A DNA stretch of 64,000 bases from Amoebophrya sp. A120 (Eukaryota; Protista; Dinoflagellata), in the NCBI GenBank assembly GCA_905178155.1, contig CAJINV010000022.1:565799-629798 (forward strand), given 5' to 3'. Positions 18,670 to 40,131 of the stretch are shown here, piece after piece; the first letter of the stretch is position 1; each line of letters begins with the position of its first letter. The notes under the pieces were generated by a model. The model saw only the letters and a list, made by a program, of their open reading frames with translations. It searched no databases and was not told the origin of the DNA. The position numbers were made by a program, and so were the translations under genes.

Positions 18670-19038
18670 TGTTGATCGTGTGATCTTGACCTCCCGAACA
18701 CACTCCTTCTTCTTCTTCTTACGGGAAACAAAACGCGTCCTTTCCTGATTGTGTTTGCTCAAAACCTTGAGCCAACGGCTCAAACGAAAATTGTTGTTGT
18801 ACATGTTTCAGCATGAGAGATTCGCTCTCCACCCGGTTCCAGGGTCTATCTAATGTTCTCTCTCAAAGAAAGAAGAGTGCGAATAAACTTTTCCCCAAAA
18901 ACGAATACGAAAGATATTGGAAAAACGATGGATGCGACTAGTCGTGAAAAAACAGATACCGACTAGCGACGACCACGATAAGCGAAAAAACAAGCTCTTG
19001 ACCGATGAGAGATAGGTGTGAACACATTGTGAACAACA
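18670..19038 (-). repeat. Copia 3' LTR
   Basis: Direct repeat of 24592-24960. Confidence 0.97.
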
Positions 19039-19050
19039 CCCCTCCTCAAA
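19039..19050 (-). other. Copia polypurine tract
   Basis: Minus strand TTTGAGGAGGGG abuts the 3' LTR. Confidence 0.85.
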
Positions 19051-19199
19051 CTAGCCGAAGGACCTGCTTTTTGCAAATTTAAAGCTTGGAAAATGGCTGG
19101 TCGTGCTAGTTTGCTATTTAGTGGCGTTTTTCTTCTACTAACTCAACTATCTGTATGCTGACCTGTATGCATGCTATGACTTTTACTCGATTTTATGCG

Positions 19200-22100
19200 C
19201 TATGGATTAATCATACTGATGAGAAAGTTATGCACTTTGATCGGCAGTGACTTGGTAAGGATATCAGCATACTGGTATTTGGTTTGCACATGGACTACCT
19301 TTACTTCTTTTCGCTTGTGTAGGTCTTTGATGAAGTTGTAACGTATATCGATGTGCTTGGTTTTGCGCGTGCTATCACTTTGCTCTACTAGATCTATGCA
19401 GGACTTATTGTCCTCAAAAATTACTGTTGGGCATTTTTTAACATCAGGAATTTTTGCACTTTCGGCTAGGCTGGAGATAAAATTCCGATAATACAAAATC
19501 TCGCGGCCGCACTCCGATATAGCGTAGTACTCGGCTTCGCAGCTGGAAAGTGATACAGATTTTTGTGTGATCGATTGCCAAAAAACTAAATCACCACCAT
19601 AGAAAACGAGGATGCCGGAAGTGGATCGGCGGTCTTCCGAATTGCCCCAATCGGCATCCGAAAAACCTATGATCTCTTCAGCATCGGGCGTGTGCGTGCA
19701 CGCCTTTATTTCTAGCGGTTGCGCCCCACGAAAGGTCAACGCAAATTCCCGCGTGCCCTTCAGGTAGCGTATGAGCCGCGCGGCGGCGATGTGCTCGCGC
19801 TTCGTATTTTTGTCGCTGAATTTTCCTAGTTCTTTTACTGCGTAGCCGATATCATATCGCGAAGCTACTGCAAGATACATGCACATCCCGACTAATTTTC
19901 TATAATTGCTGCTGTTGACCTTGGTCGGTGCGTTTGTATCATCTTTGTCTATGTCAATGGATCTAAGATCGGTAGAAGGCGTGCGCACTGGCATGCAGTT
20001 TTGCATGTCAAACTCAGAAAGAATTTTGTCTATGAGTGTCTCCTGAGTTATTTTTATAGTGCCCTTCTTTTTGTTTTGATGAATATGCAGGCCGAGATAC
20101 ATGCGATGCGAAATTCCTTTTTCGTCAGTAGTAGGCTTAATCCGCTTGCAAGCGAAGTTTTGCAGTATCTCACTAACCTCAGCATCGATGGCATCCTGTC
20201 GGCCGAACAGAAGTAAATCATCTACATACAGGAGGAGATAAACCCCATTGCGGTCGAAGAGACACGGCTCGACTTTATTCTGTCGCCAACCATGCGAGGA
20301 CAAAAAATCTCGAAAATACTCATACCACCTAAATCCGCTCTCCTTCAGCCCATAGAGGGCGCGCTGAAGCTTCCAAACTTCGCCCGGCTTCGTCCGCCAC
20401 TGCGGCGGCGGCGAAACGTAAACCGGCTCGGTTAGTGGTGCATTGACATACGCATTGGAAATGTCGTATTGGTCTATGTCCCACTTTTTTCTGGCGGCTA
20501 GGGAGAGCAGGATTCTGAGCGTACTAAAACGCGCGACGGGCGAAAAGTAGGCATCTGCGCCATGCTGGCGGTTGCCAAGCACCACACATCTGCACTTAAA
20601 TCTGCCATCCTCCTTGCGCGACAGGATAAGCCTGAGCGGCAAAATATCCTTCTTGGGTATTTTTGCCCACTCAGGTTCCGGCAGAGGTATGGCGAAGTTT
20701 TTAGCTTCAAGCCCGTCCCGCTCTACTTGTATACACTTAGACCAATGGGTCGCGTTTGCACTTTGTAGCGCCTGCCTAATGCAGATTTTATCAGCTAAAA
20801 AGCATAAGTCCTGTACACTTTGCATAGTGAATTCTACCTCAGGACATTCAACTTGCAGGTAGGCCAACAACTCCTCCGTAGTGCAGTCTTGCGTATCCTG
20901 ATCTCGCGCTTGGTTCCGCAGCAGGTACGACTCGTCCTCGAAGGAGATATAGGACAGCGCGGCGCCCGCATTGTTGTGTCGCACCGTCTTTGGCGTCGGG
21001 ATGGATAAGAACACGGCGTCGAGGGTCGTCTGTATCTCCGGTCGCGAGTGCTGTGCGGGCTTCGGCTGGCTACTGTTCTGGTCCCGGTCGCAGGAGCTGT
21101 TTATTGCTGCTGTATCAGAAGACGTCGCGACCGGTGCGCGTTTCCCTTCCTTGGGAAAATGTCGATCACTGTTGCGCGTCCCCTCCTGAAGCTGTTCGTC
21201 GGTGGTAGTTACGAATTTGCGCGGGGCAGCTCCGGGAACGTATGTGCGGCACGCAATTTGCTCGGCGAAGGTTACTTTATTCCGGACACGGGAAACTGGT
21301 GCGATTGGCCGTCTCCCCGTGCTGTTCTTCCGCACAAAGTCTCGGACCCTTGGCAGGACCTTGTCGAGCTTTTCGTCGTAAACTGCGACGTCGAGGGAAT
21401 GATCGGCAAAACCTAGAAACCGCCCCGGGCTCCTTCGGTCCTCGAGCTTGCCCTGCGGCTTCGTGTTGTAAAATACTTCCTCGCCGAAGCGAAGAAGTTT
21501 GGCCGTGTCGAAGTCCTCGCCGTAGGCTTCCCGGTGGGAGTTGCTGCCGTGCAGGCATTTTCGCGGCATTATCGACAAGCAGAAAACGTAGTGCTTTATC
21601 GCATAGCACCACAACTTTTTCGGCAGTCCGGAGTCAGCGATGAGTGTTCTTGTGCCCGCGAGGGCCAGCTTGTTCAACACCTCCGCGCCGCCATTCATCG
21701 GCGATGAGTAGTAGGAGGTGAAGATCTGGACTATTCTATTAGCCCGGCACTCGGCCCGGAACCGCTCCGAAATAAATTCGCCACCGTTGTCCGACTTCAG
21801 CCGGCGCGGGGCGGTGTGCTTCGCGATCCAGAGTCGCAGGCCATTGACGCTGTCAGCCTTGCGGCGCAACGGCGCCACCTCCGGCAGCCGCGTCTTCTTG
21901 TCCGCTATGGTCATCGCGAATTTATGTCCGTGCATCGACTCCGGCAGAATTGGGCCGCAGAGGTCCGTGCTGATTTCGTCATTGAATGTCAGCCGGCCCT
22001 CGTACTGGTCATCCCGCGGCCCCGCCCGGTGTGGAGCCTTTGCTGCTCTGGAGATCGTACAGCTCTGGCAGAACCCGCGGTAGGGAAGTATGTGTGCGCT

Positions 22101-22619
22101 GCGGCAGTGGTCTTCAAAGCTATATGTCAAGCATGAGTACTCCTCCTTACTAGTATTTTTGTGGAATATTACGTAAAAGAGACCGTTCGTAAATCTGTGT
22201 ATAGCGATGCTCTTCCTCTCCTGGCCGGGAAGGAAGAGCTGCGCAAGGTCTGCGCTGAAAAGAAATCCTTTCGCCAGCAAAATGCTGACAGCGAGGATGT
22301 TAAAAGGTATGCAATCGTTGAAGATTGCCCTGCTGATATTGATCAACAAGTTGTTATTTGCAAGTGGCTTGGGTTTGCATATTGGCGCCTTGACTGGCTC
22401 GCCGAATATGCCCCGTACCGATGTAACTTGGTCCCTGTAAATCGTATCTACTAGTGTGCTGTCTTGGAGCATGTGTGACGTGGCCCCCGTGTCGAGTAGC
22501 CATATGGAAAAATTTGCATTGGATAATGTATCGACTGTTTCAACCATACTATAAATGTTGTCCATTCTAGAAAAAATTTTTGCTGTTTCGGGCGCAACCC
22601 GCATGAAGTTGTCTGACAT
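19200..22619 (-). CDS. pol: Copia Pol (protease, integrase, RT, RNase H)
   Basis: WLLDTGATSHM; H..H..CQSC; DLCGP..SDNGGEF..NGGAE; DISNAY..YVDD; DADW..KHIDIRY. Confidence 0.95.
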   Translation of the reverse strand: MSDNFMRVAPETAKIFSRMDNIYSMVETVDTLSNANFSIWLLDTGATSHMLQDSTLVDTIYRDQVTSVRGIFGEPVKAPICKPKPLANNNLLINISRAIFNDCIPFNILAVSILLAKGFLFSADLAQLFLPGQERKSIAIHRFTNGLFYVIFHKNTSKEEYSCLTYSFEDHCRSAHILPYRGFCQSCTISRAAKAPHRAGPRDDQYEGRLTFNDEISTDLCGPILPESMHGHKFAMTIADKKTRLPEVAPLRRKADSVNGLRLWIAKHTAPRRLKSDNGGEFISERFRAECRANRIVQIFTSYYSSPMNGGAEVLNKLALAGTRTLIADSGLPKKLWCYAIKHYVFCLSIMPRKCLHGSNSHREAYGEDFDTAKLLRFGEEVFYNTKPQGKLEDRRSPGRFLGFADHSLDVAVYDEKLDKVLPRVRDFVRKNSTGRRPIAPVSRVRNKVTFAEQIACRTYVPGAAPRKFVTTTDEQLQEGTRNSDRHFPKEGKRAPVATSSDTAAINSSCDRDQNSSQPKPAQHSRPEIQTTLDAVFLSIPTPKTVRHNNAGAALSYISFEDESYLLRNQARDQDTQDCTTEELLAYLQVECPEVEFTMQSVQDLCFLADKICIRQALQSANATHWSKCIQVERDGLEAKNFAIPLPEPEWAKIPKKDILPLRLILSRKEDGRFKCRCVVLGNRQHGADAYFSPVARFSTLRILLSLAARKKWDIDQYDISNAYVNAPLTEPVYVSPPPQWRTKPGEVWKLQRALYGLKESGFRWYEYFRDFLSSHGWRQNKVEPCLFDRNGVYLLLYVDDLLLFGRQDAIDAEVSEILQNFACKRIKPTTDEKGISHRMYLGLHIHQNKKKGTIKITQETLIDKILSEFDMQNCMPVRTPSTDLRSIDIDKDDTNAPTKVNSSNYRKLVGMCMYLAVASRYDIGYAVKELGKFSDKNTKREHIAAARLIRYLKGTREFALTFRGAQPLEIKACTHTPDAEEIIGFSDADWGNSEDRRSTSGILVFYGGDLVFWQSITQKSVSLSSCEAEYYAISECGREILYYRNFISSLAESAKIPDVKKCPTVIFEDNKSCIDLVEQSDSTRKTKHIDIRYNFIKDLHKRKEVKVVHVQTKYQYADILTKSLPIKVHNFLISMINP

Positions 22620-23101
22620 TTTTCACAAACTGGGACGCGAATGCCACTGAGATGAGAAGGCGTGGCCTCAACGGAAAATTAGCGCACTGCTATCCCCGAG
22701 GTCAGAGGGTCTGTGACTCACGATGTCACTCCCGCCTGCGCCCTGGCGATGTCAGTGTCGTCCGTACAGCAATATTTATACACGGAAGTAGAATTATGCA
22801 CATGGGCGTGACGCCTTCTGCTATTTTGTAGCGACTTATCTTGCAGTTAATCTTTTTGCTTTTCAAAAAAAAATATTTGCTTTGTAATGCGGAAACTCAG
22901 ATTTTCCGTGGTTTTTGTGACAAAATCCTTCAAAATTTGTTTTACACAAAGAGAAACCAATAAAAAAATAGAAAAAAAAAATTGTACAGAAATGCGATTG
23001 CAACCAATGAAACGAGATTATACAAAACTTGAATTGTACATTGCGAACTGATATAAATGTGTTTGAAAGTAATTATTTGAAATTGACCACCGCCGCACTA
23101 T

Positions 23102-24502
23102 TCACATTTCCACCTTCTCAGTGGAAGTGCCCCGCGACTGACTGTTGTTGCGGCTTGTGGATTGCTGGTTGCGTCTGATGGTTCCGCTGCCCCGGTTCTG
23201 GCTGGTGTTGCGACTGGTGGATCGGTCCTGTCGCACGAATTTGTTGTCGCGGAATCGCCCACGACTGCGATTGTCGTTGCCCCAGCTCCAGGAACCGTCG
23301 GCGTTCCAGTGCCACGGGCGACCGTACTCGTTGTTGTTGCCGAACTGCGGCTTGGTGTTGTTTTGGTAGTTGTTGCTCCCGGCCGTACGAAAACCGTTGC
23401 CGGTGAATCCGCGCTGCTGTGGGCGGAAGCCAACGAATGCGGTGGCGCCAGCAGCCGCTTTTCCGGCGACGTCGGAAATCCGGTCCGCGAGGATGACCCG
23501 GATCGCGGTCTGCACGTTATTGAGGCGGAAGTCGCCCGCGATTCGTGTCAACAGACCGGTGACCTGGTGCGGTTCCAACTCACCAAGCACCGCCTTGATG
23601 AGATTCAGACCGTGGATCTCGTCGACGGAAATTTTCTCGACCTTTTTCCGCAGACGCTGGTACGTCTGGAGGTCGGTCTGCAGGTGATCGGAGCGGACCG
23701 TAAAGTTGGTGAAGCGCAGCCAGATGGATAGTTTTTCACTATTGCGCCCAGGGTAGATCTCGCCGTTGAGCGCGCTCAGGTAGTCGTCGATGGATTTGAT
23801 CTCCTTGTCGCGGATTGCGTCCTTCAACTCGACCACCTCGATGCTCTGCTTCAACTGGTAGATCAACGTCGAGAAGGGGAGACTACCGGCTACGACGCCG
23901 AAATACTCCCGCACGTCGGTTTCGTACGCGTCGATATCGACCTGATGGCACCGGATATCGTAATCGTCGATCTGGCTACTGTCCAACTTGAGTTTGGGCA
24001 CGGAGAGCTTGGTCGGGTCGACTTGTTTCTGGTATCCGTACGAACTGTTTCCGCGACCAGCGGCCGCTGGGGTGTAAATTTCGTAGTGCTGGGTCCCCTG
24101 CTGTCCGTCGTCGGATTCTTCGGAATCTTCCTCAATTTGCTCCTGACTGCGGTTGGGTTTCAGTTTGAAGACGTCGATGTTCCCGGCGTTGTTTTCCAGG
24201 ATCTCGAGCGCTTGCTTCTTGAGCTCCTTGAGATTTTCCTTCGACAAGTCGGACGCCCCTTCGGTAGCCCGGATCTTGTTCGCCACCCGCGCTACTAATT
24301 TGAGAAAATAGTAGTCTTCGCCCAATTTCAAGAATTGGCTGCGGTTCTGGTCGTTCACCGCAGTCGCGCCGGCCTGGCGCGCGAAGATCTGCCAAACCTG
24401 GTCGCTGCTACCGCAGATGTAGATGTAGCGAGCGCTGTTGATGGTTGCGATGCCTCCCGCTTTGTTTTGCGGATGTCTGCTGTTCTGGGCTGGTGGCGGC
24501 AT
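23102..24502 (-). CDS. gag: Copia Gag (separate ORF)
   Basis: 466-aa ORF just downstream of the 5' LTR/PBS; basic R/S/N-rich tail; no CCHC knuckle seen. Confidence 0.8.
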   Translation of the reverse strand: MPPPAQNSRHPQNKAGGIATINSARYIYICGSSDQVWQIFARQAGATAVNDQNRSQFLKLGEDYYFLKLVARVANKIRATEGASDLSKENLKELKKQALEILENNAGNIDVFKLKPNRSQEQIEEDSEESDDGQQGTQHYEIYTPAAAGRGNSSYGYQKQVDPTKLSVPKLKLDSSQIDDYDIRCHQVDIDAYETDVREYFGVVAGSLPFSTLIYQLKQSIEVVELKDAIRDKEIKSIDDYLSALNGEIYPGRNSEKLSIWLRFTNFTVRSDHLQTDLQTYQRLRKKVEKISVDEIHGLNLIKAVLGELEPHQVTGLLTRIAGDFRLNNVQTAIRVILADRISDVAGKAAAGATAFVGFRPQQRGFTGNGFRTAGSNNYQNNTKPQFGNNNEYGRPWHWNADGSWSWGNDNRSRGRFRDNKFVRQDRSTSRNTSQNRGSGTIRRNQQSTSRNNSQSRGTSTEKVEM

Positions 24503-24579
24503 CTTTATTGCATGTAGTAGTAGTGACTTCAGGATGATAATCGAATGTGTTTTTGGGGATGGGGGTCTTTAGCAAGAGA

Positions 24580-24589
24580 GGCTCATAAC
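24580..24589 (-). other. Primer-binding site complementary to the tRNA-iMet anticodon arm
   Basis: Minus strand GTTATGAGCC 2 nt after the 5' LTR; + strand GGCTCATAAC. Confidence 0.75.
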
Positions 24590-24591
24590 TC

Positions 24592-24960
24592 TGTTGATCG
24601 TGTGATCTTGACCTCCCGAACACACTCCTTCTTCTTCTTCTTACGGGAAACAAAACGCGTCCTTTCCTGATTGTGTTTGCTCAAAACCTTGAGCCAACGG
24701 CTCAAACGAAAATTGTTGTTGTACATGTTTCAGCATGAGAGATTCGCTCTCCACCCGGTTCCAGGGTCTATCTAATGTTCTCTCTCAAAGAAAGAAGAGT
24801 GCGAATAAACTTTTCCCCAAAAACGAATACGAAAGATATTGGAAAAACGATGGATGCGACTAGTCGTGAAAAAACAGATACCGACTAGCGACGACCACGA
24901 TAAGCGAAAAAACAAGCTCTTGACCGATGAGAGATAGGTGTGAACACATTGTGAACAACA
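24592..24960 (-). repeat. Copia 5' LTR
   Basis: Direct repeat of 18670-19038. Confidence 0.97.
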
Positions 24961-26226
24961 ATTTGGACATGAAACGAGTTCGAGAGAATAGACTTGTATA
25001 AACTGAGTTCAACATAACTCGCCTGGCGTTGCAGGTGCTGCGACCATGCACGACGAAGTACTTACAACTTTATTTGACGACGACACAATTATTCTGTATG
25101 ATGGCGACACTTCTTTCAGAAAGCTGCCCATAGTACTTTTTTCTACCGAAGGAAGCGGAAACTAGTTTCTTCTGTTCATCCTTGGGGCTTCGTCACATAC
25201 TGCATGTTCTACTTGGCAGCACGCATAGGCTCAGGCTGGACCGGGGCATTACGAAGCACCTCCAGCGTGGGTGTGACCGTCTCCGTCATGATCATGACGA
25301 GCTTTACATATTACCCCATTTATTTTCCCGTACGGATGAAAAAACTTCTTTGCATGCACACCAGTATATCGTTTTCGTTCTTACATAAGAGGACCACGTA
25401 AGTCTAGCCTGACGCTTTTCAAAAACCCTTGAGTCAAGAAGAAGTGTGCACAACTTCTCCTCCGCCGGAGTCGAAGGAGTAGCGACTTCCAAGTGCTGCC
25501 ACCGAGAAATGTACAATTACAGCGACCATACACATAGAAAAAGCATTCCCAACTTGCGCACGATGCGACGTCCCATTTCGGATATCATTTTACTGACTTG
25601 AGGTCAAGGTATATAAAAGTGTTCCACGAATTTGATGGCAGCTGTTTTCTGCAGCAGCAGTGTCACTGCAACTTCTTCTGCACGCTCCGTCGAGATTCGA
25701 CGGAAGCAGAAGTCGGCTAGGCATCCTACCCCTAGGTTGTATCCCGACTACTAGGGACATGCGCTGCGCAACTTGCCATCTCCGAAAGTTCTGTTGTCTT
25801 CTCGATTACCTACACAAGAATGTTCCGGCGGTGTGGCACAATCAAAAAGAAGCCCCCGGCGACGGCTTGTTGCGCTGCTTTTGCTCTGTTCCAGAAGCGT
25901 TATATGAAATTTCCGTGATTATATGAAGAGGTGGACGAGGTACCGCAGTGGCTTTCTCGCTGTGCGTATCAAATGTCAGATAAAAGCTGGGGTTGATTTT
26001 GAAAGGATGGAGCCGAGCAAGAATGTTCTTAGCACAATGCAGAATGGCAAATTTCGATAAACCTAAAGATCTGAAATTCGAGTAAACCCAGAAGCAATGT
26101 TGCAAGGAAATTCCAAACTACATAAAGAACTGTTTGTGTAGTTGGTAGGTGGGAACATGTATTGACCGAAATTCGACATAGAATCTGAGCCCAAAACAAG
26201 AAGTAGATAAAAACACATTCAAGACC

Positions 26227-29200
26227 ATGATGCGCAGCAGCCTCGCGGAGCCTGCGGGGCAGCAGCAACGGGCTGGCAATCTCCGTCCCAGCGGTGTGGG
26301 TGGCATGTTCGGCAAGTTGAGTACCGCGGAACAACCACCCGCAAGACCGGTCGCAGCGATATCCCGCAAAAAAAAGCAGTCAGGTCAGATTTGTAATGCG
26401 AAAATACATACGAAGAAAAATCTCCTGTCACGGGCAACCCCATAGGAGGCTGTTCAGGATATTACGCAATAGTACCGATTCATCTTCTGTGTATTTATTT
26501 TTGCACTGCAAATATGACCTGCACCTGCCTGTCTTTTCCTGTGGGATAAGCGAAAACCTCGACCAAGCCGCAGAAGAACTGGGCGGAGAAGCACCGGCCG
26601 AAAAAACTGCAGAACATTGTTTTACGCGAACAGATATGCATTGCAAAAGTATCGTACTCATAGTAATTGCAAACATGCATCACAAATCTTGTTCTTAAGC
26701 CAAATCCGCATTACAAATTTTATTTTTCACGCTGAGGAAATTTGTATTGCATTTTTAGTACGAGTACGATACTTTTGCACAGGATAACACACCCGCAAGA
26801 CGTTCGAGAAGAGCATCGAACAGCCGTTGAAGATGCCCCACCTGCTCATGTACGGCCCCCCTGGCACTGGAAAAACCACCACCGCCTGGGCGTTCTTGTA
26901 CGAGTTGTTCGGGAAAAAAGCGGCGGGTCGCCACGTCAAGGCGCTCAACTCCAGTCAAGACCGCGGGATCAAGGTGATTCGGGAAGAGTATGGTCTGGGG
27001 AAAAACTTGTGCATTTTTGAAGTCGACGGGGAAGTACTTTTTTTTGCCGGTGATTCAGGAAGATCACTAAAGCAGGGTTAGAAGTAGAAGACGTAGCGCG
27101 TTTATTGTCACGCAGGAAAATAACCGTTGCTGCATGCGATCCATCACCGAAGATTTTTTGTGTAACCATAAAAAGCTGTTGGAGTCGCAGAAGGAGATTG
27201 AGGATTACAAACTTCACAGTACACAAATTTTCCCTACCATAACGCAGTGAAGCCCTACTGTGAGGCGGAAATTAACGATAGCAAGGACGAACCTGGGTAA
27301 GATCGGAAGTAGAATCCTTTCAAAGCTCGCAATCGCATGTTGACAAAAACAAGCGTTGCTACTGATGCGCCAAATGAATGACACACAGGGATTCTTCTTT
27401 CCATGTGCCCTTTGCAGTTACTTATTCCGGTATGACAAACTACTTTTCCAAAACAAAGACATCAATCCCAGGTACCCTAACCCGCGCTTGAAATTCATCC
27501 TGATGGACGAGGCGGACGCGTTAACGATGGAAGCCCAAGCCGCGCTCCGACGCGTGATCGAGGAAAACTCGGATAACACCCGCTTCATCCTGTGCTGCAA
27601 TTACGTGAACAAAATCATCGAGCCGATCCAGTTATGCAAGACATCAAAAGTATCATACTTCAAGAAAATGTGCATCACAAAGTACATTCCGAAACGGAAA
27701 ATAAACTGGCAGCTTGTGTGATGCTGATTTTGGAATAGAAACCAGATTTGATGTTGTCATGTGTAAAGATGGTCCACCAAGCTACTGGTAGTGCGAGTAC
27801 GATACTTGGTTTTCACATGATATCAGTCCCGTTGCGCCTCCGTGGCCTTCACCCCGTTGGCGCCGGACCTGCACAAGCTGCATTTGGTCAAGTATCAAAG
27901 TGAAAAAAGCCCCCACCCCACATCAAAACGAAATTTCTGATGCTGTATTTGCGTACACGAATCAGATTTGTCTTGCAGTAGGGGACTGCAGGCCGATATC
28001 ATGCCAGTGCGCAGAGGTTTTGGCCTAGGCGCTTAGCATGGGGAACGCCTATGCTGTAGGACCAACAGCATTACAAACCGCCTGCATAATGGGGCGGAGC
28101 GCATGCCGTTACTTTCTTGCAAGACAGACACGATTTGTGGTCACAAATCAGCATCGCAAATTTTTTGAGGCGTTCCTTTTCGATATGCGGAGGGGGGATT
28201 TTTCCTTACAATATCAAGATCTGCAAGGAGGAGAACGTCGTTTTAGTAGAGGACAATCTTGAGAAATTTTCCCAGTCCCAACTCCCGATTGACATGGTAT
28301 CCACTGCAAAAGTACGGTAAATTTTGTAGTAATTCGAAATTGATGCAATCGCGCATGGGGGGGTCAATCAGCAATACAAATTGCCGTTCTCGTCATGCGG
28401 AGCAAATCTGTCATGCAGCTACGAACACCAGTACGGTACTTTTGTCTAATGCATATATGGAGGAAGACTTCGACTACAATGACTGCAACAGCAAGATTCA
28501 AGAATTGAATTTCAACACCCCCTGCCTGGACTTCCTCGTCGACCTATGCGTTGCAGAAGTACTATCGTACTCGTAGAAATTGCATTCATGCATGACAAAA
28601 CTGGTTGTTCCTTAGGTAATGCACGATGACAAATTTTATTTGTCATGCTGCGAAAATTTATATGTAAAAATGCAATTACAACCAGTACGATAGTTCTGTT
28701 TCAGGTCCATACGACCTCTCCGATGGCGACTGCCGGCGGTCCATCACATTATTGCAGTCGGTCGCGAGCGTGTGCAGCCGAAAAGGCAAGGATGCAGATA
28801 GCACAGTGACTGTGGGAAGAGCCACGAACATGTTCGGCGGTGGGGGCAGCAACGCTCTTGCGTCGAGAGCTTCTGTGGCGGGAGCGGCTGCAAAGGATGT
28901 GAAGATTCGCGTCACGATATGACAATGGAAAATTCCCCATCTCCATAACTGAAACGAATATTTCTTGTGTAGCACGATTTGTGATCACAAGTCACCGATT
29001 GAGTCCTATGCTAGAAGGGAAGATGAGATGTTGTGACCTGTAGTTCTTTCTGGCTGGCGTGGAAAAGCTTTGCGCTTTAGCTTTACGCATGTTGACAGAA
29101 AGCAACTGCAAGCCGGAGGTAACAGCATGACAAATTACCTGCAATTGAGGCCGCAACTTCGTCTGTTGGACTTCTAGCAATACCGGTCGATTTGCGTACG

Positions 29201-30953
29201 GAAGAAATCCAGCATCACAAATTTCCTTTTCAATATGGGGAAGGGGGATAATTCTTCCTCAGGATACAGAAAGCCAGATCTGGTCCAGGTTTCTAACTCG
29301 CTGGAGGAACCGAAACTGCAAGAAATCGTGAATCACATCTTGTTATGCAGCGCAAATATACACGCATTTGTTGCTGGAAACTTGTAATGCTGGGGCGTGA
29401 AGAACAGTAAACGCTCTGCATAAATCTAAATACACAGCCAAGCAAGCATGACAAATGTTTGCGCGGCTTGGTGTTGCGTTTTCCGCATGACAAACTGCGT
29501 TTATTTTGCATGCCAAGCAAAAGCAGAGTCTCTTCTCGGACACGCGTCACAGACTCTTTAGTTGTCATGGCACCATACAAGCATATAGAAATAACCTTGC
29601 ATTCTTCCAGACCCAGACCAATATTTGCGGCGCATACCTGTACACCGAAACATTCGAAGAAGTGGAAAACGATGCGGAGTGGCTGTTGCGCAACGCTTTT
29701 GCGGTCCGAGCGGTGATCATCCCGATTTGGCAGGAGATCCGGAGCCGGGCGAAAAATCTCTTCTACAGCTATCAACCGTAAAAATGTCTGGGTCTGGAAG
29801 ATTCTGACACTTGTCATGCACGTTTTGCATGAGCCGTGATGTCTGTGATGCATGCCCTAGCATCACAGATTTTTTGAGAGCTTCTTGATGCCTATTTCGC
29901 ATGACAAATGCCCTCTCCGTGTAGCAAAAATTAAATTTTCTTTTGGCATTCATGCAACACAGATTTTTCTGGAATCCAAATGCAGCATCACAAGTTCCAT
30001 TCTTCCAGACCCAGACACTTTTACATTTGATAACAGCAGCGCGGCCTCGATGAGCCAGTTCGCGGGGTCTGGCTTTGCCGGGACAAAACGGGAGGACTTT
30101 TTGCCACTACAGTTTTCCAACTATGCATTGCAAAAGTAACCTACTAGTAGAAATTGCATGACAAATTTCGGCAAGTTGAAAAGTGGAATTTGTAATGCTG
30201 TCTTACCTTAGGAGGAAGATTTGTCATGCATATTTGCAATTACCTCGAGTGCGATACTTTTGCACAGCACACCAACCTACAGTGGACGAAAGTGGGGATT
30301 CTGATCGCGGAAGTCGATGGTATGGTGAACGCAAACGTCCCGACCGACGCGGTGTATCCCTATTTCCTGCTCACGTTGTACCTGCTCCTAAACTATCAAA
30401 TGCAAAAATGTCTGGGTCTGGAAGGTTGCAACCCAATTTGTACGTTGCGCAAGTGATAGTATATGTAGTAATAGTTAGTTCCACCGGTGGACATATTAGC
30501 ATGCTTAATCTCTCTCTAAATAGTGCAAACACGTAGTTCTCTTTTATTTTCTTTCTTCATAAAGTTCAAGTCGTTCTCTTCCCTGTGCTGTACCAAGGTC
30601 TTGTTTCCAGACAAAACACCAGACATTTTTGCATTTGATATGTACACGAAGCAGGAGATCAAGCCGGCAAAAAATCTGGCGGAGGTCGACTATGCTGTGC
30701 AAAAGTATCTGATACTCGTATTGCATGCATGCATTGCAAATCTATTCCCTAAGGTAAATCAGCATTACAAATTTTCTTTCTCATGCTGAGGAAATTTGTA
30801 ATGCATTTATACGAGTACGATTCTTTTGCAATGCATATCGACGATCACGCACTGATTTGGGCGCAGTACTCCGTGGGGGTGTCGAAGTATCACGACGAGT
30901 ACAATCCATATCCGAAGGAAGAAATGTGGGGAAACGAAATTGCGACTTTCTGA
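26227..30953 (+). CDS. Replication factor C small subunit (RFC2/RFC4-like clamp loader AAA+), 13 introner introns plus one GT-AG intron
   Basis: Spliced model: [75 protein letters not shown]; open to TGA 30951-30953. Canonical intron 27297-27471 (alternative in-frame acceptor 27417). Confidence 0.93.
26360..26548. mobile_element. TIR introner (other family)
   Basis: TATCCCGCA...TGTGGGATA; perfect AGCGA repeat. Confidence 0.9.
26635..26786. mobile_element. TIR introner family B
   Basis: Flanks ACAGA/ACACA; frame restored. Confidence 0.92.
26989..27241. mobile_element. Diverged TIR introner
   Basis: TATGG..GGAAAA..TTGTG / CACAAATTTTCC..CCATA; +5 removal gives IREE-VKPY. Confidence 0.75.
27633..27822. 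mobile_element. TIR introner family B within the SRC motif
   Basis: Flanks CCAGT/TCAGT; removal restores IQ-SRC. Confidence 0.9.
27893..28213. mobile_element. TIR introner family E (C-run/G-run TIR)
   Basis: Perfect TCAAG repeat; related to 38414-38735. Confidence 0.9.
28298..28455. mobile_element. TIR introner family B
   Basis: Flanks CATGG/TATGG; frame restored. Confidence 0.85.
28545..28711. mobile_element. TIR introner family B
   Basis: Perfect CGACC repeat; restores DL-SDGDCRR. Confidence 0.9.
28918..29266. mobile_element. TIR introner family E (diverged)
   Basis: TATGA..AATTCCCC / GGGGGATAATT..GGATA; flanks CACGA/CAGAA; frame restored. Confidence 0.8.
29344..29636. mobile_element. 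TIR introner family A (diverged)
   Basis: TATGCAGCGCAAATAT...ATATTTGCGGCGCATA; flanks CTTGT/CCTGT. Confidence 0.85.
29770..30032. mobile_element. TIR introner family A
   Basis: Perfect ACAGC repeat; very similar to 62492-62753. Confidence 0.95.
30122..30271. mobile_element. TIR introner family B
   Basis: Perfect CCAAC repeat. Confidence 0.9.
30394..30640. mobile_element. TIR introner family A ends with an atypical interior
   Basis: TATCAAATGCAAAAATGTCTGG / CCAGACATTTTTGCATTTGATA; flanks TAAAC/TGTAC. Confidence 0.9.
30691..30837. mobile_element. TIR introner family B
   Basis: Perfect TCGAC repeat. Confidence 0.95.
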
Positions 30954-31831
30954 AGTAGATAGGAACTGTTACGGAAGGGGATTTTTAGTCGTAGATGCTG
31001 AGCAGGACAATGAGCAGGTTAGCTTTTTATTTCTATAGGCCAAGACCTTGAACTTCAACTTCTACATGAGGCGTAGTTGTGCATTAGCCAGATTTGAAAA
31101 AGTGCAAGCGTACTAGCGAGAGTGAAAATGTCGAATCGTAGAAAAGCGTAGCGAGACCGAAGGTAACATGAGAGAAGTTTTTCGAGGCACCACAGATATT
31201 GGTGTCAACGCAGAGCAAGCGTACTTGCGATGAGACTGTCATGACCAAAGTTGTCAATGATCAGAGGATTTTTGGAAAAAGGAAAAAGGAAAACCCAACA
31301 TTGCTGCGATTGTCGAAGAACTACACGTTCCGTGAGGGATGATGAAGATCAGAGTAAAAGAACAGCAAAATGCTGCGTGAATGATCATCAACAAAAAATG
31401 ACTGTGCGTGGAAGAAAAGTTCTTGTGGGAAGATCATCTGAACAAGCAGACTAGTGACGATCGGAGTCAAGAAACTGTGATTTCATTGCCCACGACATCC
31501 CACGAGGACGAAGTGTACTTCTGACTCAGGCTCATGCTCAAATTGTCGTCCTATCGGACGTCGATTAGTCCCACACGGGTTCTTGATGATCACCAGGACT
31601 TCTGAAGGTTTTTGTTTTTTCATCCTCGCGACGTAGACGCACTGTACCAACTATACTTGAAGACTTTTGCGTTTCGCTTTATATATCATACAGCAAACGG
31701 CCGGAATATTTTTGAAATCCAATTTCCCGTCGCAGTCGCACCTGCGCAGTAGTACACAAAATCAACATTTCGTTTGGATGACAAACTACAACCTAAGATC
31801 TACTACTGGACGAAAAATTTTTGTCACAAAA

Positions 31832-34800
31832 ATGCACGATCCTTTCATGATCCCGAAAAGAAAACTCCGACGCGGTCACGGACCACCTTCCCCCGCAGCT
31901 GGTGTTTATTCCGCATTCTTGTTGGCGCAGCTCTCCATGTTGTCCCATTATGCCGCCTTGGGGTTATTTGTGGGTGTGGTCTTCGCGAGTGATATTGTTC
32001 CAAGACCAAGCGCGCTGGTATCAAATAAAGGCGGACGCTCGTCCTTTTCAGGCGCATCTTCCTCGGCATGCAGCTCCTTGCATAAAAATCCACCCCGCGA
32101 AGAAAAAGAAGTAGACCACAACATGGACGAACAAGCGCAGCTCGATGTTCTGGACACAGCGCCAGCATCTCCACCACAGAAACGGAGAAAAATATTGCGT
32201 ACTACTGATCATTCCGCAGCTGAACAAGAATGCACAGCTGCTTTTCGCGCCGCAAGCGGCCTCTTACAGGAAAAATTAACCATCGCTGCACGCGAAGATC
32301 CACCACAGCAGCCAACCAGCAGTAGCTCTGCCACAGATCATCGTCCTCCGCATCAAGTGCAACCTGATTTACTCCCAACTGACACTTGGGAGAATGTCGC
32401 GTCTTTCCTTTCCGCTGCCCGGAAAATTCCTGTGAAACAACAAGTAGGGCAGTCCTCCGAGGAGGAGGAAACACAACAACCAGCGCTGGGAGATGTTGAA
32501 ATCGAGCAAACGAAGCTGAATCTGGAGAATTTCTTTAAAACCTTGCAGCGCAAGGCCGCCGCCATGTGGGAGAAGCAGTTGCTTATGCATTGCAAAAGTG
32601 TCGTACTGGTCCTTCTCCTAGTTGTAATTGCATTTTACAAATGTCTCCAGCTTGAAAAATGAAACTATTTGCAAAAATGCTCCTTTAGGTTGAAAGAGAA
32701 GCTTCTCATGCATAAGCAAGTGCAAGAAGTCCTGCGAGTATCAGATACTTTTGCACATCATATTCCGGTCTCCGAAGTTTTGGAACGGTGCTACCGACAA
32801 CTCGGGAGCTGGATTTTTACGAGCTTGTGCTTCCGACACCGAGAAAGCTGTGGCTGCAGAACGGACCCAGTCGGTTGTGTACAACAGAAATATTTCTTTT
32901 TCGCACCGAGAACCGCTGTCGCTCCCCAGCAGATTTCTGACCAGACTCGCTGGGGCAATCGTGAAGCAGACAATTCTCGCGCACGTGTTGCGACGTGGCT
33001 TCCGCTTGGGGCCGGAGTATCCGGGTTCCGGGTTCGCAAGTGCGAGTAGGTCGGCGGGAGAATTGATGAAACAGGGGAAAAAAACGTACTTTGGCAACGA
33101 TTGGCATCGAAGGCTTTTTTACTTCCGTGACGCGGCGACGTCGACACAAGCTGCTTCCGATGGAGGTTCATTATCCCCTCGAAACCTTGTCCCCGGAACA
33201 TTTTCCTGTCGAGCAATCGACAACAAGAATACTTGGAACAACAACTGGCAAAGCGGTGACTACAATATGGATTGCAAATATGTCTGGGTCTGGAAGAGTG
33301 CGATATTTGTCATGCTAGTCTAGCATGACACTGAGCCCTGTATTGCGTGGCCAGCAAGAGGCCCTCTGGTCTGTCATGCAAAAACGCTGTTTCTCATGCG
33401 GAATACGCAACACAAAGCCACGGAAAAATTTGTCATGCTTGGCGGCGCATTACAATGTACCTCCTATTAACTAACATGCATCACAACTTTCCAGACCCAG
33501 ACACTTTTGCATTTGATATACAATCCGCTGTTGCAACACGGCTGGCTGTCTCCGCAGATCTTGTCAGAAATAGGGGTGCGGAAGACGAGAAAATTAGAGG
33601 AGCAGGCGCGCAACCGTGGTTCTCTGTCCTCTAAAGATGAGATGAATAGTACGAAGGGAGCTGCGGCCGCGGGTGTAGTACTACAGTCGAGTAGTTCATC
33701 TACGGCAGCTACTAGCGGTACAACAAGCTCCGGAACGACCACGGCTGCCAGTACGACGTCATCCGCTTCGTCGAGCTCAATCTCCTCTTCCGGAGCAGAT
33801 GGCAATACGGCCAGCCTCAATGGTGCGAGTCCGTCAGGGACTACTACGCAGTATAGTGGTGTTGATCACGGTTCTTTAACTACACCAGCGGCAGAGCAGG
33901 AACTACGAGGCGTGTCCGACGACGAGGAGGCGGGGGCCACAAGTACGAGGGTCGCTCCACCAGAAGTCGACGAGGAGGCGGTCGCCTGGTCGAATGTAAA
34001 TATTCAGCCGGAGCACGTGCAGCAGGGCCGCGATGCCAAGGCTTTTTTCGAGGAGCACGTGGTCAAAAATAACGACCCAGGCAAGTACTACCCAAAAGTT
34101 TTTCTCGATTCAGGAACAAAGCGGACCGATTACCACTTCCCCCCCGCCTTCCACCGCCTCTTCGGCCGGCTGCCGCGGCCGGAGGGCTTCAATCCGAATG
34201 CGCAGGAAGACGAAGAGACGATCACTCTACAAACCGACGACTACAGGGCCTACATCCGGAAGCCGGATGGGTCGAACCGCTGGAGAGTATGCATTGCAAA
34301 TATTTCGGGGTCTGTAGAAATGCCAACCTGTGATGCGACGTGTGAAGAGGTCCAGACTCTCTGGACCATGCTGCAAAATTTGCATGACAAACTTCTGCAT
34401 TTTCCCAGACCCAGATATTTGCAATGGATAGACCGGCAGCAGCAACCAAACGACGAGCCACTACACGACCAGATTCGACTATGCATTGCAAAAGCATCGT
34501 ACCAGTATAAATCGCAATACAAATTTTCTCAGAAGGAGAAACGGAGTTTGTAATGCTGATTTGGCTAAAAAACAAGATTTGTCATGCGTGATTGCAATTA
34601 GTACGAGTATGATACTTTTGCAGAGCATATCGACCTGGACCAAGCAATTCACGACGCCACGTGGGGGTATCCTGAGTAAAAACGTCCCCACACCAGAGTC
34701 AAGATGGTAGATCTGCTACACAAATCAACCAGCTAAGACTATTTTGCATGACAAGTTTGTGCTCGTAGTGTAATCCTGTTAAGCTAGTTCAGCAGCATCA

Positions 34801-35519
34801 CAGATCTACGCTATCGTGCTGATTGACGCATCACAAATTCCAAAACGCGACTAGAAAATGCTTCTCATTGCGCTCCGCGTGAGAAACTTTTTGTTTTTTG
34901 GCATGCAGATTTGCATGACAACTCTGGGGTGGGGACGTTTTTACACAGCATAGGGGAAGACCAGTATTCAATGCAGGACGACCACATCAGCCTGGCGCGG
35001 ACGGCGTCTTTGCAGAGGAATTTGAACCCCACTTGCGGTTTCTGATTATGAATGTGCACAATGTCCCCTCCCCCTCACTTGTATATGCAAAATCCCAAAT
35101 CCAGGTGCTGCCTTGTAGCACTGTTTGCATGACAAATGATCCTGGAAGCCCAAACAGCACTACACTCCAGTGCAAATTTTTCATGCAAAACCGGCATTCT
35201 TTCTGATGCTTGTATTGCCGTTCATGCTATACAAAATGTGGGGGAGGGGGAGTTGTGGCGCAATTCTATACTGATTCTCGAGTCGCCAGAAGTGTTTACA
35301 CTTGTGAAATGCGACGTGCAGAACAACTGGGTGTGCGGGGTGCAAATCTGCGAGGCCGACGACCGGGAGGATCGAAGGCGAAGAATTGCGGCAGAAGACC
35401 CCCGTAATCGAGGAGACCGTGATGGTGCAACGGGCAGGACGGCGGGGGCGACGAATGGAGGACGGCGCATGGATCATACGGCCAGGGATGACGAGTATCG
35501 CCGCGTACAGGGGGGATAG
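31832..35519 (+). CDS. Unknown protein with an N-terminal hydrophobic segment and S/T-rich region, 6 introners
   Basis: Removing the elements at 32584, 33266, 34288, 34480, 34668 and 35047 (+5 nt each) gives one open frame ending ..RDDEYRRVQGG* (TAG 35517-35519). Confidence 0.75.
32584..32762. mobile_element. TIR introner family B
   Basis: TATGCATTGCAAAAGT...ACTTTTGCACATCATA; frame restored. Confidence 0.85.
33266..33518. mobile_element. TIR introner family A
   Basis: Perfect TACAA repeat. Confidence 0.95.
34288..34430. mobile_element. Short (internally deleted) family A introner
   Basis: TATGCATTGCAAATAT / ATATTTGCAATGGATA; 143 bp. Confidence 0.85.
34480..34629. mobile_element. TIR introner family B
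   Basis: Perfect TCGAC repeat. Confidence 0.92.
34668..34952. mobile_element. TIR introner family C
   Basis: TATCCTGAGTAAAAACGTCCCCACACCAGAGT; flanks GGGGG/GGGGA. Confidence 0.92.
35047..35270. mobile_element. TIR introner (C-run/G-run type)
   Basis: TCCCCTCCCCC / GGGGGAGGGGG arms; perfect CTGAT repeat. Confidence 0.88.
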
Positions 35520-36860: not shown

Positions 36861-39800
36861 CGCTATCCTAAGAAAAAACGTCTTCAACCTATAGCTCACG
36901 ATGGAGAATCATCTTCTGCTACACAAATCCACAAGTTTTGGCTGTCGCGCATGACAAGTTTGGGCTCGTGTTTCGCTAGTGCTGTCACCGCATCACATGA
37001 ACCCTACTACCTTTTTATTCTGATTCGAGCATAACACATCATCCCAAAAAAGCATATAGAAGATGCCTCTCATGGGGCTGCGCATGAGAAGCATTTTAGG
37101 CGTGCAGATTTGCATCACAACTCCGGGGTCCTCTTCACAACTCATGGCAAACGTTTTTACGTAGGATAACCGCTCGAAATCTTCGCCGCTCCGCTGCAAC
37201 TTGTCACTGTTGGCGCATCGCCACTCGCGCTGAGCAATCGCAATGGTGACGAAAAGGTGGCGACAATACTGGCAGAGCGGTCCTCTCTGCAGAACCTGCA
37301 AAATGTAGCCGGACAAGAAGTGATGTCACTATTCTCTGCTTATCAAATGCAAATATGTCTGGGAGGTCTGGAAGGATGCAAGACTTGTCATGCATATTTT
37401 CCATGCCCCCTGGGGTTTGGAATGCAGGACCTAGCATGAGAAGTTCTGCGACGTCTCTATCATGGTGCGTCTCCTGCATGACAAACTGCCTCTAACCTTG
37501 TTCAAAAGTGTACAGCTTTTGGTAGTCATGCAACACAAATTTTTGTACGATCCAGACTTGGCATGACAAGTTCGCGTCCTCCCAGACCCAGACATATTTG
37601 CAATGCATACTGCTACCCCCCGCACTCAGTCGGCCGTCGTGCCACTGACCTTGGTGGAGAGAGGGCAAAAGCTGCACTTCGCAACACTTCTGAACATGCA
37701 TCACGCGGGGTTTGGCACCTACACTGCCGCCAACAGAAAGGAGGAATGGAACGCGTTTTTTCAACAAGCGCAAACTGGAAAACTTGCCGACATGACGGTC
37801 CCTGGCTTAGAACACCAGCTGCTCTCTATTACAGTGAAAAATGCACCCACCCCGAAAGTTGCAATAATTTCAATTTGTGATGCGACGTTTCCAAATGAAA
37901 ACTCTTTGTCTTGCATGAAAGGACTATGAATCTTTCTGATGCGGAGTCTAGTGCTAAGTAGTCGTATACAGCATCGCTTGCATGACAAGCCCTGCTCTTG
38001 CTGGGATCTTTTGCAATACAGATTTGCACTGTTCACGATTGAAAATTTGTGATGCTGATACATGCAAGACTGCGACTATTTCCATTGGAGAGGTAGTTTG
38101 CGATGCAAATGCTCCCAAGTTCTGGGCTGGGGGCATTTTTCATTGTAATGCCCTCTTTCATCCGTGCTGCTTCTCTGCCCAACTCTGTCAGCCTGCCACG
38201 TTTAGAAGACCTTATCGCGCCTGAGAGTGAGTGTCAGAAAACTTGCTTTCAGTGGATGCTGGCAGGGATCGAGAAAGCTCTGGCGACGGTTTCACCTGCA
38301 AGCGCTAGACCGGCGGGAGCAGATGGTTTTTTCTATGCAACAAGCATTTATGATGAGAATGACCGAGCCCCGGTTGTTCTTCCGTTAGTCGCAGATAAAC
38401 TTCGGTATGTTGCTATTGTGAGGCAAAATCCCCCCTCCCCATATCGAAAAGGCACGTTTCCGAAAATTTGTGTTGCTGATTTGAGGTCACAAATCACATC
38501 TGTCTTGCAAGAAGACAAGGGCAAAAGCTTCGCCCCCATTATGGAGGCGATTTGTCATGCTGTTGGGCCTAAAGGGGGGCCGTTTGCCATGCTGAACAAC
38601 TAGACCGACACGCCCCTAGCTAGCCTGGGGAACTGGCTGCAATGCCTTCCTGCAATACAAAGCTGATTTGTGTACACAAATCCAGCATCACAAAATCCGT
38701 TTTGATATGGGGAGGGGGGATTTTTCCTCTCAATAGTTTCACTTCGTGTGAGTTTGGGGCAGCGAGGCGTGGACCACCCGATCCAGGTGCTATCGACCGT
38801 GTCATGTATACGTGTCTGGGATGTGAGCTACATTGCTTTGAGCGCGTTATTCGACGAAGGGTTTACTATTTATTTTTGAATTTGCAGAGTTTTCTATGAG
38901 CAGAATTTGCTTGTTTGTCCCGGCGACCCTAGTTCTGATGATGAAAAGGGCTATAGCATAAAGTCATGGTCAGTAAGGCATCGTAATCGTTGATGTTTCA
39001 GTATAAGCGCTTCTAATTTGTTTTGCAGCACGAGCGCCACGCCGGAAAATATAGTTTCTTGTTTGGGCACGCGCACGGGCACCTCTGTATACAAGTCAAC
39101 GCGACCACTGTCGCCTGGCACAAGGGCGCTTCTTGCGATTTCATCGCGTATTTCGTATGCATATCGAATGCAAATATGTCTGGTTCTGGAGATTTGTCGT
39201 GATGCAAGATGAGCAGACTCTGATGCGCTGCCAAGCATGACAAGTTTTTCCGTGGTTCTGAGTTGCGTACACCGGCGCATGAGAAACTGCGTGTTTGCAT
39301 GACAGGCAAGAGGAGCTCTTTGCGGCCGCGCAATACAAATTCAGAGTCATGCTAGACATGCATGACAAATCTCTATCTCGCAATCTCCCAGACCCAGACA
39401 TATTTGCAGTTGATAATGCAGCTTGGATGACTCGTTCTAGGACCAGACACGTATACACATCCATACACCATCGTGCACGACTATCTAACCGACCTTGACG
39501 ACGATGGGCTGTCCCTTATGACGTGTGGAACCAAACACCTGGCCCTCGGTTTTTTTGCTATATTTGCTGTTTATAAAAATAGTTTGTCGTGTCCAAATCA
39601 GGCACACCAAGCGACACTGGTCTGCTGGGAAACAGATGCGCAGCTCTACTGGATCTGTATGAGGACGCAACTTGCTTTAATGCGTTCTTGACATAGCAGG
39701 TGGCCAGGGGCAGGGGCAGAACAACTTTTACTTTTTCGACGGCATTTATGCTATCGTCCTCCTGGCAAAAAATGTCGTTATTGCATTGTTGTACATGCTT

Positions 39801-40131
39801 TTCATGCAGACGACGCAACACACACCACGTCTCACCGACACTGAGGGTTTATATACATTTGGGGCTTTAACATCTTCGTGGGCGGGTGTTCATTATTTTC
39901 AACTTTACATCATCAAGCCTTGGCGATGAAGATCGTGCGGTGCTCAAAAATGATCGCACAGCCCGAACAGGTTGGCTCAGATTCCGTGGCGAAAGTGGGC
40001 GGGAATTTGAGCTCAAGTACGTGGCGCGGGGAAGTTTATGGGGTCCGCTCGAGGACGACCCCGGTCCGGGTTGGCGTAACGTTGGTTTCGTGCTCTCTGG
40101 GCCAAGACCGGTTGCGCAACAGCGGCGGTGA
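36323..40131 (+). CDS. MVALLKKRMPG family protein, copy A (signal-peptide-like N-terminus; possible ubiquitin-like domain)
   Basis: Frame restored across elements 36864, 37341, 37827 and 38414; last exon ..GWLRFRGESG..GFVLSGPRPVAQQRR*; middle exons uncertain. Confidence 0.65.
36864..37168. mobile_element. TIR introner (family C-like)
   Basis: TATCCTAAGAAAAAACG / CGTTTTTACGTAGGATA; flanks TCCGC/ACCGC; absent in paralogue B. Confidence 0.9.
37341..37609. mobile_element. TIR introner family A
   Basis: Perfect CTGCT repeat; absent in paralogue B. Confidence 0.95.
37827..38150. mobile_element. TIR introner
   Basis: TATTACAGTGAAAAATGC / GCATTTTTCATTGTAATG; flanks CTCTC/CCCTC; absent in paralogue B. 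Confidence 0.88.
38414..38735. mobile_element. TIR introner family E
   Basis: TATTGTGAGGCAAAATCCCCC / GGGGGATTTTTCCTCTCAATA; flanks GTTGC/GTTTC. Confidence 0.88.
39162..39415. mobile_element. TIR introner family A
   Basis: Perfect ATGCA repeat. Confidence 0.92.

Follow-up and report, generated by a model that had tools for sequence, protein, structure and literature searches.

The RFC4-Type Gene and Its Insertions

The window analysed here, a 64-kb stretch of the Amoebophrya sp. A120 genome, carries a gene for a clamp-loader small subunit of the RFC4 (human)/Rfc2 (yeast) type, interrupted by 13 inverted-repeat inserts and one GT-AG intron (Table 1). RFC small subunits are part of the five-subunit clamp loader and are essential in yeast. 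When each insert is removed together with 5 nt, the 535-aa translation is identical, letter for letter, to the annotated A120 protein P0001. The best PDB matches of the product are human RFC4 (E 8e-50) and yeast Rfc2 (E 1e-44). Box II, Walker A, the DEAD (Walker B) motif and the SRC arginine finger are all present in an AAA+ module that can be aligned to both proteins, from which the A120 protein differs by two insertions and a C-terminal extension. Unlike in RFC4 and Rfc2, its putative collar region has apparently diverged beyond recognition by Pfam: Rep_fac_C has no match in P0001 at E<=0.1; the A25 orthologue, which can be aligned to this part of P0001, has one at E 0.078. Protein comparison, together with exon-only contigs in the likely-RNA runs X3 and X5, identifies a transcribed gene for an RFC4-type clamp-loader subunit, and the 120 matches listed include no further A120-labelled RFC4-like protein that could be a second copy. 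The CDS is interrupted by 8.7 introns per kb (published mean 1.42; Farhat et al. 2021, PMC7789003), and the gene is a densely split but unexceptional example of the published intron invasion.

All 13 insertions reported by the first-pass annotation were found, and its coordinates for introners 3 and 8, the GT-AG intron and the TGA stop were correct. The cores, of 147-349 nt, all start with TAT; 12 end in ATA and one in ACA, and the 5-nt direct repeats around them agree at four positions or better in 10 of 13 cases. One insert had been placed inside the SRC motif; the cut in fact falls immediately before the Ser codon (Q/SRC), and the Arg-finger codon itself is unsplit.

Table 1. Gene, introners as spliced, GT-AG intron and two control introners of neighbouring genes (window coordinates).
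Feature	Position	Strand	Core	Repeat identity	Remarks
RFC4/Rfc2-type clamp-loader small subunit gene	26227..30953	+			15 exons; 1608-nt CDS; 535 aa
Introner 1	26359..26552	+	26360-26548	5/5
Introner 2	26634..26790	+	26635-26786	4/5	left-repeat position 4 retained in RNA
Introner 3	26988..27245	+	26989-27241	2/5	alone pins cut at -1/+4; contig piece stops at 26987 in both X3 and X5
GT-AG intron	27297..27471	+			175 nt; end-to-end pairing not predicted; A at -7
Introner 4	27632..27826	+	27633-27822	4/5	cut at Q/SRC boundary; arms not predicted to pair
Introner 5	27892..28217	+	27893-28213	5/5	visible only inside summed offset 856
Introner 6	28297..28459	+	28298-28455	4/5	visible only inside summed offset 856
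Introner 7	28544..28715	+	28545-28711	5/5
Introner 8	28917..29270	+	28918-29266	3/5	left positions 3-4 retained
Introner 9	29343..29640	+	29344-29636	4/5
Introner 10	29769..30036	+	29770-30032	5/5	young, 92% like copy at 62492
Introner 11	30121..30275	+	30122-30271	5/5	ACA end replaces ATA; orientation opposite to introner 2
Introner 12	30393..30644	+	30394-30640	3/5	22-nt perfect inverted repeat
Introner 13	30690..30841	+	30691-30837	5/5
Control, old introner in neighbouring gene	38790..39469	+	38791-39465	0/5	nested introner inside; cut still -1/+4; joint 38789/39470, no ambiguity
Control, old introner	39516..39913	+	39517-39909		ACA end; arm pairing energy at background; cut still -1/+4; joint 39515/39914

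The Repeat Family

The inserts are introners, as had been proposed. A120 introners have been described genome-wide, with inverted repeats of the form TAT + 7 nt + AAA, direct repeats of 3-5 nt (5 bp in the legend of Fig. S19) and a mean length of ~240 nt (Farhat et al. 2021, PMC7789003), and tens of introners per gene have been noted (Gozashti et al. 2025, PMC12130899). The inserts described here come from the same organism and the same gene model (P0001) and have the same anatomy: terminal inverted repeats starting with TAT, seven variable bases and an A run, border repeats of 5 nt, and non-canonical junctions supported by transcript contigs from runs whose RNA status is a tool's guess. Both the introner class and this gene model had been made public before, and so had A120 genes carrying both intron types.

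Chance would give 16.7 +/- 4.2 copies of the end motif TATS-N6-AAA in the window, where 91 are present. In an automatic census (n=31), flank identity is 0.88 at a repeat length of 5, a length that the selection favoured, and 0.15-0.34 at other lengths; the census overlooked 5 of the 13 inserts, and window counts are therefore lower bounds. As in a repeated family, interior similarity between window copies is 67-92%, and summed depth on young inserts is very high in the DNA-like run X1. Empty sites were seen in a paralogue pair, and a relative has no insert at alignable positions. A metagenome scan gave one close relative among 80 loci. An Rfam scan of the window gave no matches. A neighbouring Copia element finds no support as the mobiliser; its LTRs end in TG...CA, not TAT...ATA, and only the 5-bp duplication is in common.

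Removal in Likely Transcript Contigs

Single contigs in X3 and X5 lack exactly the insert lengths: the predicted sums are reproduced by six X5 offsets and five X3 offsets. The GT-AG intron is likewise missing from these contigs, and exons and UTRs are matched with no other letters. These contigs belong to one study (P2), the RNA or DNA nature of X1, X3 and X5 is a tool's guess, and the RFC-gene joints are those among the joints listed, the search having given 492 more. The raw RNA run X9 contributed four partial reads, none of them on exons, and so speaks neither for nor against removal. The GT-AG intron boundary follows from an offset of 433 (258+175) and a piece start at 27471; the offset excludes an alternative acceptor at 27417 (in-frame AG, good pyrimidine tract, T at -7), which is unused in the contigs.

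The open frame to the TGA had been offered as evidence of exact removal. The 535-aa model does match P0001, but an open frame fixes the removed length only modulo 3, and inserts 9-13 allow another open reading (536-538 aa). The +5 rule is established because the RNA contigs show the removed lengths, and the eroded copies obey it both in the RFC gene and in neighbouring genes. Of removal said to be "precise and efficient", precision holds in the contigs of two likely-RNA runs; efficiency is beyond them, as contigs lose rare forms and give no levels. For the old copies, repeat decay shows only that the repeats are dispensable, not the gain of function implied by "domesticated".

A Fixed Cut Register

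Elements whose 5-nt repeats have come to differ are informative, as RNA contigs can fix the cut in them. All 16 informative junctions, from four genes, fit one register, an outcome with a chance probability of 2.7e-7. The intron runs N+TAT...A[T/C]A+NNNN, cut one base before TAT and four after A[T/C]A. Three elements pin it individually, with zero ambiguity; 12 of 28 do not report on it (10 with identical repeats, two without a listed boundary). In terms of the repeats, the mRNA keeps four bases of the left copy and the fifth of the right, so that an insertion leaves the protein unaffected at any site. Piece ends fit this 4+1 register in 11 of 11 cases, against 10 for 5+0 and 8 for 3+2. In neighbouring genes, 15 of 20 joints are listed; one was discarded as a repeat artefact, and the other 14 (15 elements) fit both element+5 and 4+1. 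All host genes in this test lie on the + strand, and opposite-orientation pairs among the informative elements are weak matches (30-31 bits).

Under this register, intron positions +2 to +4 are TAT, and A stands at -7 and -5, in 28 of 28 elements, while +1 and -4 to -1 are free. None of the 28 has the GT (or GC)...AG termini of U2-type introns; two other U2-type features, U+2 and a 3′-proximal adenosine that might serve for branching, are present in all. We have not found the fixed register in print, where A120 introner borders are called variable or unknown, with no dinucleotide signature (Farhat et al. 2021, PMC7789003), although Figures 3 and S19-S23 of that study may already contain part of it; here, the eroded repeats yield the single register -1/+4.

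The register matters more than the gene, as a fixed cut gives a real splice-site sequence, with which existing RNA-seq could test the register genome-wide. It names the base, A-7, at which a lariat should branch, and it explains how an essential gene takes 13 insertions without a change in its protein.

A Proposed Modified Spliceosome

How more than 60% of Amoebophrya introns are removed without GT-AG and without a detected U1 was left as an open question (Farhat et al. 2021, PMC7789003). Starting from the observed anatomy, removed lengths and register, we favour, with a probability of about 0.6, the reading that this RFC4-type gene holds 13 likely non-autonomous inverted-repeat transposons, each removed with five bases at -1/+4, likely by a modified U2-type spliceosome. 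Insertion of such a transposon would duplicate five target bases. The machine would read N/UA(U)S as a donor with no need for G+1; the invariant A at -7 would be a fixed-distance branch point, with the cut 7 nt later and no need for AG; and the terminal hairpin would probably help to join the ends but could decay. Precedents are the Fritillaria spliceosome, which acts on non-GT/AG introns (PMC13326754), and a fixed branch position in Entamoeba invadens. The inverted repeats start with TAT in A120 and TTA in A25 (PMC7789003), and the top terminal pairs in Table S4 of Farhat et al. are NT-NN in 9 of 9 cases for A120 and TT-NN in 9 of 9 for A25; in both strains, U+2 would then be followed by A+3, as in GUA. 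Several points count against a spliceosome. Splicing is said to depend on a terminal non-Watson-Crick pair, which is broken here because the +1 and -1 bases are free; the end bases that are conserved double as transposon termini, which mobility alone could preserve in young copies; conservation is about equal at the 5′ and 3′ ends; and U1 was undetected in A25 and A120. The supplement of Farhat et al. yielded no U6 sequence as text.

N-TATCC was also considered as a U12-like signal, a reading set aside since minor snRNAs are reported absent.

For canonical and non-canonical introns, one machine is as likely as two removal modes, because mixed genes have been described before and the U+2, A+3 and A-7 of the inserts also occur in the GT-AG intron. 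A broader proposal, which we advance tentatively and at slightly worse than even odds, is that the Amoebophrya spliceosome makes no demand on the first and last bases, takes N/UA as its donor, cuts at a fixed 7 nt past the branch A and serves both intron types, and that introner termini have evolved to fit this code in either orientation, so that any 5-bp target would yield a perfect intron. If so, the "variable" borders of about 30,000 A120 introners would be one fixed rule masked by target duplications.

Alternative Readings

The two modes of the first-pass annotation imply precise RNA removal by a separate, non-spliceosomal nuclease-ligase measuring one and four bases from the hairpin foot, which we regard as unlikely. 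Such an enzyme would suit the unconstrained terminal dinucleotides and the undetected U1, and non-spliceosomal factors have been suggested for Euglena introns, in which spacers of fixed length flank a stem (Nomura et al. 2025, PMC12501133). At least 14 expected pairs between the end regions are kept in 26 of 28 elements, and in many predicted folds exactly 1 and 4 bases stay unpaired; however, the outermost pairs are not predicted in 8 of 28, and the two elements whose arm pairing is at background (27633 and 39517) are still removed at the +5 length, 39517 exactly at -1/+4. The ACA ends (2/28) lose a pair but retain A-Y, U+2 A+3 seems to be common to two strains whose termini differ, and the same organisation of repeats is seen in 15% of canonical A120 introns, all of which argues against a hairpin-measuring enzyme.

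It is much less probable that the cut falls at different points of the 5-nt repeat in different elements, as Farhat et al. state, and that the shared register is an effect of sampling or alignment. Their dataset rows for A120 families do give mixed site and mechanism calls, and 12 of 28 elements are silent on the register; but alignment inside identical repeats would itself yield mixed calls, the 16 informative junctions agree, three with zero ambiguity, and the joint-placement rule recovers the GT-AG intron boundary exactly.

Least credible is elimination of the inserts from DNA, or a dead locus with contigs from an uninterrupted second copy: the nature of X1, X3 and X5 is not on record, but the exon-only contigs lack the GT-AG intron too, no second A120-labelled protein stands among the matches listed, and X1 contigs, which would drop rare forms, run unbranched through the GT-AG intron and inserts 1, 3, 4, 6, 7 and 8 at the same depth as in the exons (43), with no joined form in DNA of the kind left by IES-like programmed elimination.

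Relation to Other Unusual Introns

The TIR/TSD introners of Symbiodinium, Chrysochromulina, Florenciella and Aureococcus share the DNA-transposon anatomy, with splice positions in the target duplication; they carry or co-opt recognisable splice sites (Gozashti et al. 2022, PMC9860276), whereas the Amoebophrya inserts need no terminal dinucleotide. Euglena nonconventional introns share a majority non-GT-AG class, a terminal stem, fixed stem-cut spacers and conventional introns alongside, but follow the code N3CDG...CHG N5-6/R (Nomura et al. 2025, PMC12501133), against N-TAT...AYA-N4 here; end logos do not show that signature, and its purine rule at exon +1 is absent (15/28). Fritillaria borealis likewise has transposon-linked non-GT/AG introns, there handled by an altered U2 spliceosome (PMC13326754); it keeps U1 and its intron ends are still biased, whereas in Amoebophrya no U1 was detected and both +1 and -1 seem unconstrained.

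An apparent avoidance of phase 1 in the RFC gene (0/13) does not extend to other genes (12/30; overall P 0.49).

Anatomy of the inserts and identity of the gene

The RFC4-type clamp-loader gene is interrupted by 13 inserts, each 147-349 nt long with arms in inverted orientation, starting with TAT and ending with ATA (ACA in insert 11). The end motif TATS-N6-AAA is seen 91 times in the window against 16.7 expected by chance. The 5-nt repeats flanking inserts 1 to 13 are identical at 5, 4, 2, 4, 5, 4, 5, 3, 4, 5, 5, 3 and 5 of 5 positions, in that order. Taking out each insert plus 5 nt, together with the GT-AG intron, leaves a 535-aa frame, and this reassembled model confirms the observation in the first-pass annotation of 13 inserts, one ordinary intron and a frame open to its TGA. 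Only 4 of the 13 removed lengths are divisible by 3. Because the open-frame test settles these lengths modulo 3 only, and inserts 9-13 also allow a second open frame, the insert-plus-5 rule claimed in the same annotation is unproven by the DNA alone; it is the transcript contigs described below that match it.

The spliced model is identical at every letter to an annotated protein labelled Amoebophrya sp. A120 (CAD7973283.1, 535 aa), retrieved with a single exon as the query, and the gene model is therefore already annotated. The introner class is likewise known: Farhat 2021 (PMC7789003) describes 29,850 repeated introners in A120 and genes of mixed intron types, and Gozashti 2025 (PMC12130899) reports tens of introns per gene. 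The closest solved structures are human RFC4 and yeast Rfc2. The A25 orthologue aligns end to end, C-terminal tail included, which supports the chosen frame. No second A120-labelled relative appeared among the protein matches listed (120 of 182 and 120 of 6254). Compared with the A25 and other orthologues, the protein carries two extra stretches, each of about 25-35 residues, and introner 6 lies in the first of them.

Coordinates of features in the window
Feature	Position	Strand	Basis or remark
Introner-bearing gene region	9600-12500		three introners
Copia-type LTR retrotransposon, apparently intact, very young	18670-24960	-	LTRs and ORFs
RFC4-type gene	26227-30953	+	ATG 26227, TGA 30953
GT-AG intron of that gene	27297-27471	+	175 nt
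Region with two protein insertions	27828-28917	+	comparison with orthologues
Paralogous neighbours	36200-40700; 42800-46400		77% identical
Introner ending ATG	37827-38150		unspliced in contig
Element 38791	38791-39465		old introner
Introner nested in element 38791	39162-39415		younger
Segment diverging from contig	39914-40728		4 letters and 1 gap
Tandem introners	44803-45340		3-nt exon at 45072-45074 under the 4+1 register
Identical reading-frame text	50596-50889; 61014-61307		about 10.4 kb apart
Related frames	1-1500; about 61-62 kb

Removal in transcripts

Four of the 11 runs listed were compared with the gene. Two of them, X3 and X5, come from one study and are RNA by the tool's guess; each gives a single exon-only contig with 0 other letters (X3 record 9, 2040 nt; X5 record 12, 2030 nt), also free of the GT-AG intron, as expected of mature mRNA. 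Offsets between the listed pieces are 351, 433, 856, 652, 423 and 404 in X5 and 351, 433, 856, 652 and then 827 in X3, and every one equals the predicted sum of insert-plus-5 lengths and the 175-nt intron, the removal of inserts 5 and 6 being visible only within the summed offset of 856.

A fixed cut register

At an element whose two 5-nt repeats are not identical, it can be read from the transcript which base stayed. In the RFC4-type gene, 11 of 11 piece ends fit retention of four bases of the left repeat and the fifth of the right (the 4+1 register), while keeping five left bases fits 10 and keeping three fits 8. The comparison was extended to positions 31300-46400 of the window, with 15 of 20 joints listed. 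One of these, which links the ends of two elements, was set aside as an artefact of repeats. The other 14 belong to 15 elements spread over three genes, and all 13 single joints agree with removal of element plus 5 nt and with 4+1. The spliced length of the first of these genes equals that of its contig (2755). The tandem pair, in which the second introner sits in the right repeat of the first, also agrees, given the 3-nt exon retained in the X5 contig. Pooled, 28 elements give 26 observed boundaries, of which 16 are informative and all compatible with 4+1 (chance of this for the 4+1 register under random cuts, 2.7e-7); the host genes are all on the + strand, and the mirrored minus-strand case is absent from the sample.

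Elements 26989 (introner 3 of the RFC4-type gene), 38791 and 39517 each fix the register alone; the repeats of 38791 are identical at 0 of 5 positions, yet it is cut at the 4+1 position. This element is an old introner holding a younger one, and the 680-nt block is absent whole from the contig. An introner ending ATG rather than ATA is unspliced in an X5 contig with a foreign left flank. Three further introners, in a gene that we take from its motifs to be protein kinase-like, have repeats differing at positions 5, 4 and 1.

From the 4+1 register it follows that the intron reads N+TAT...A[T/C]A+NNNN. With ends chosen from DNA for the 13 elements of the RFC4-type gene and defined by RNA joints for the other 15, TAT occupies +2 to +4 in 28/28 and S occupies +5 in 27, +1 being free; A stands at -7 and -5 in 28/28, -6 is T or C (26 and 2), and -4 to -1 are free. 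None of the 28 has GT-AG ends.

The fixed cut is a by-product of this analysis, and it makes the open question of Amoebophrya splicing testable. No statement of a fixed register was found in the text, legends and tables of PMC7789003, in PMC12130899 with the covered part of its supplement, or in the accessible parts of PMC9860276, PMC11282704, PMC11453091, PMC12005148, PMC12501133 and PMC13326754; the relevant terms are absent from PMC13149111.

Candidate removal mechanisms

Anatomy, removed lengths and register of the inserts are established; as the removing machine we infer a modified spliceosome, with a probability of about 0.6. The invariant U at +2 and A at +3, as in GUA, argue for it, as does the invariant A at -7, which resembles the fixed branch position described in Entamoeba invadens (bioRxiv 2022.06.08.495308). 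In a single case pointing the same way, A also occupies -7 in the GT-AG intron of the gene but is missing at that distance from an upstream AG that goes unused. Outermost base pairs are absent from the prediction in 8 of 28 elements and arm pairing is at background in two, which also favours a spliceosome. So does T at +2 in every top dinucleotide pair of both strains (Farhat Table S4, PMC7789003), although the inverted repeats start TAT in A120 and TTA in A25. The free terminal intron bases and the reported non-detection of U1 in A25 and A120 (PMC7789003) argue against it, as do the stems predicted to be retained in 26 of 28 elements and, by analogy, the nonconventional introns of Euglena, a precedent for a separate removal route (PMC12501133). 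A nuclease-ligase reading the stem is a less probable second candidate.

That the cut position varies between elements is improbable; Farhat 2021 calls introner borders 'variable' or 'unknown', and the Gozashti 2025 dataset has mixed site calls (21 of 58 A120 rows). Excision from DNA, or an uninterrupted second copy as contig source, is highly improbable. In the DNA-like run X1, from which the assembly may derive, contigs 26000-26656, 26761-27919 and 28180-29487 span six inserts as well as the GT-AG intron without branching, by the joints listed, and with a depth of ~43, which argues against DNA-level excision. The earlier proposals of two removal modes acting on one pre-mRNA and of 'domesticated' old, eroded copies are conjectural on these data.

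Origin of the inserts

Introner family members recur within the window in both orientations. The paralogous neighbours have one element position in common; at the other 10, the partner has an empty site at 8, and 2 are unaligned. This pattern is consistent with elements that inserted, each duplicating 5 bp, once the genes had been duplicated. The gene of the sole close relative among 80 metagenome loci is uninterrupted over residues 49-236 and 275-530, so the insert positions alignable there are not ancestral; its one GT-AG intron is located elsewhere.

Other features of the window

The Copia-type element carries 369-nt LTRs with TG...CA ends, reported to be 100% identical over 300 nt, together with a 5-bp duplication and two ORFs (466 and 1139 aa) in which integrase and reverse transcriptase are matched. 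The differences between the X5 contig and the window at 39914-40728 point to a different allele, or else to an additional copy, of that 3' region. Finally, identical reading-frame text occurs twice, and a related frame near 61-62 kb, presumably peptidase-like by its motifs, resembles that at the window start.
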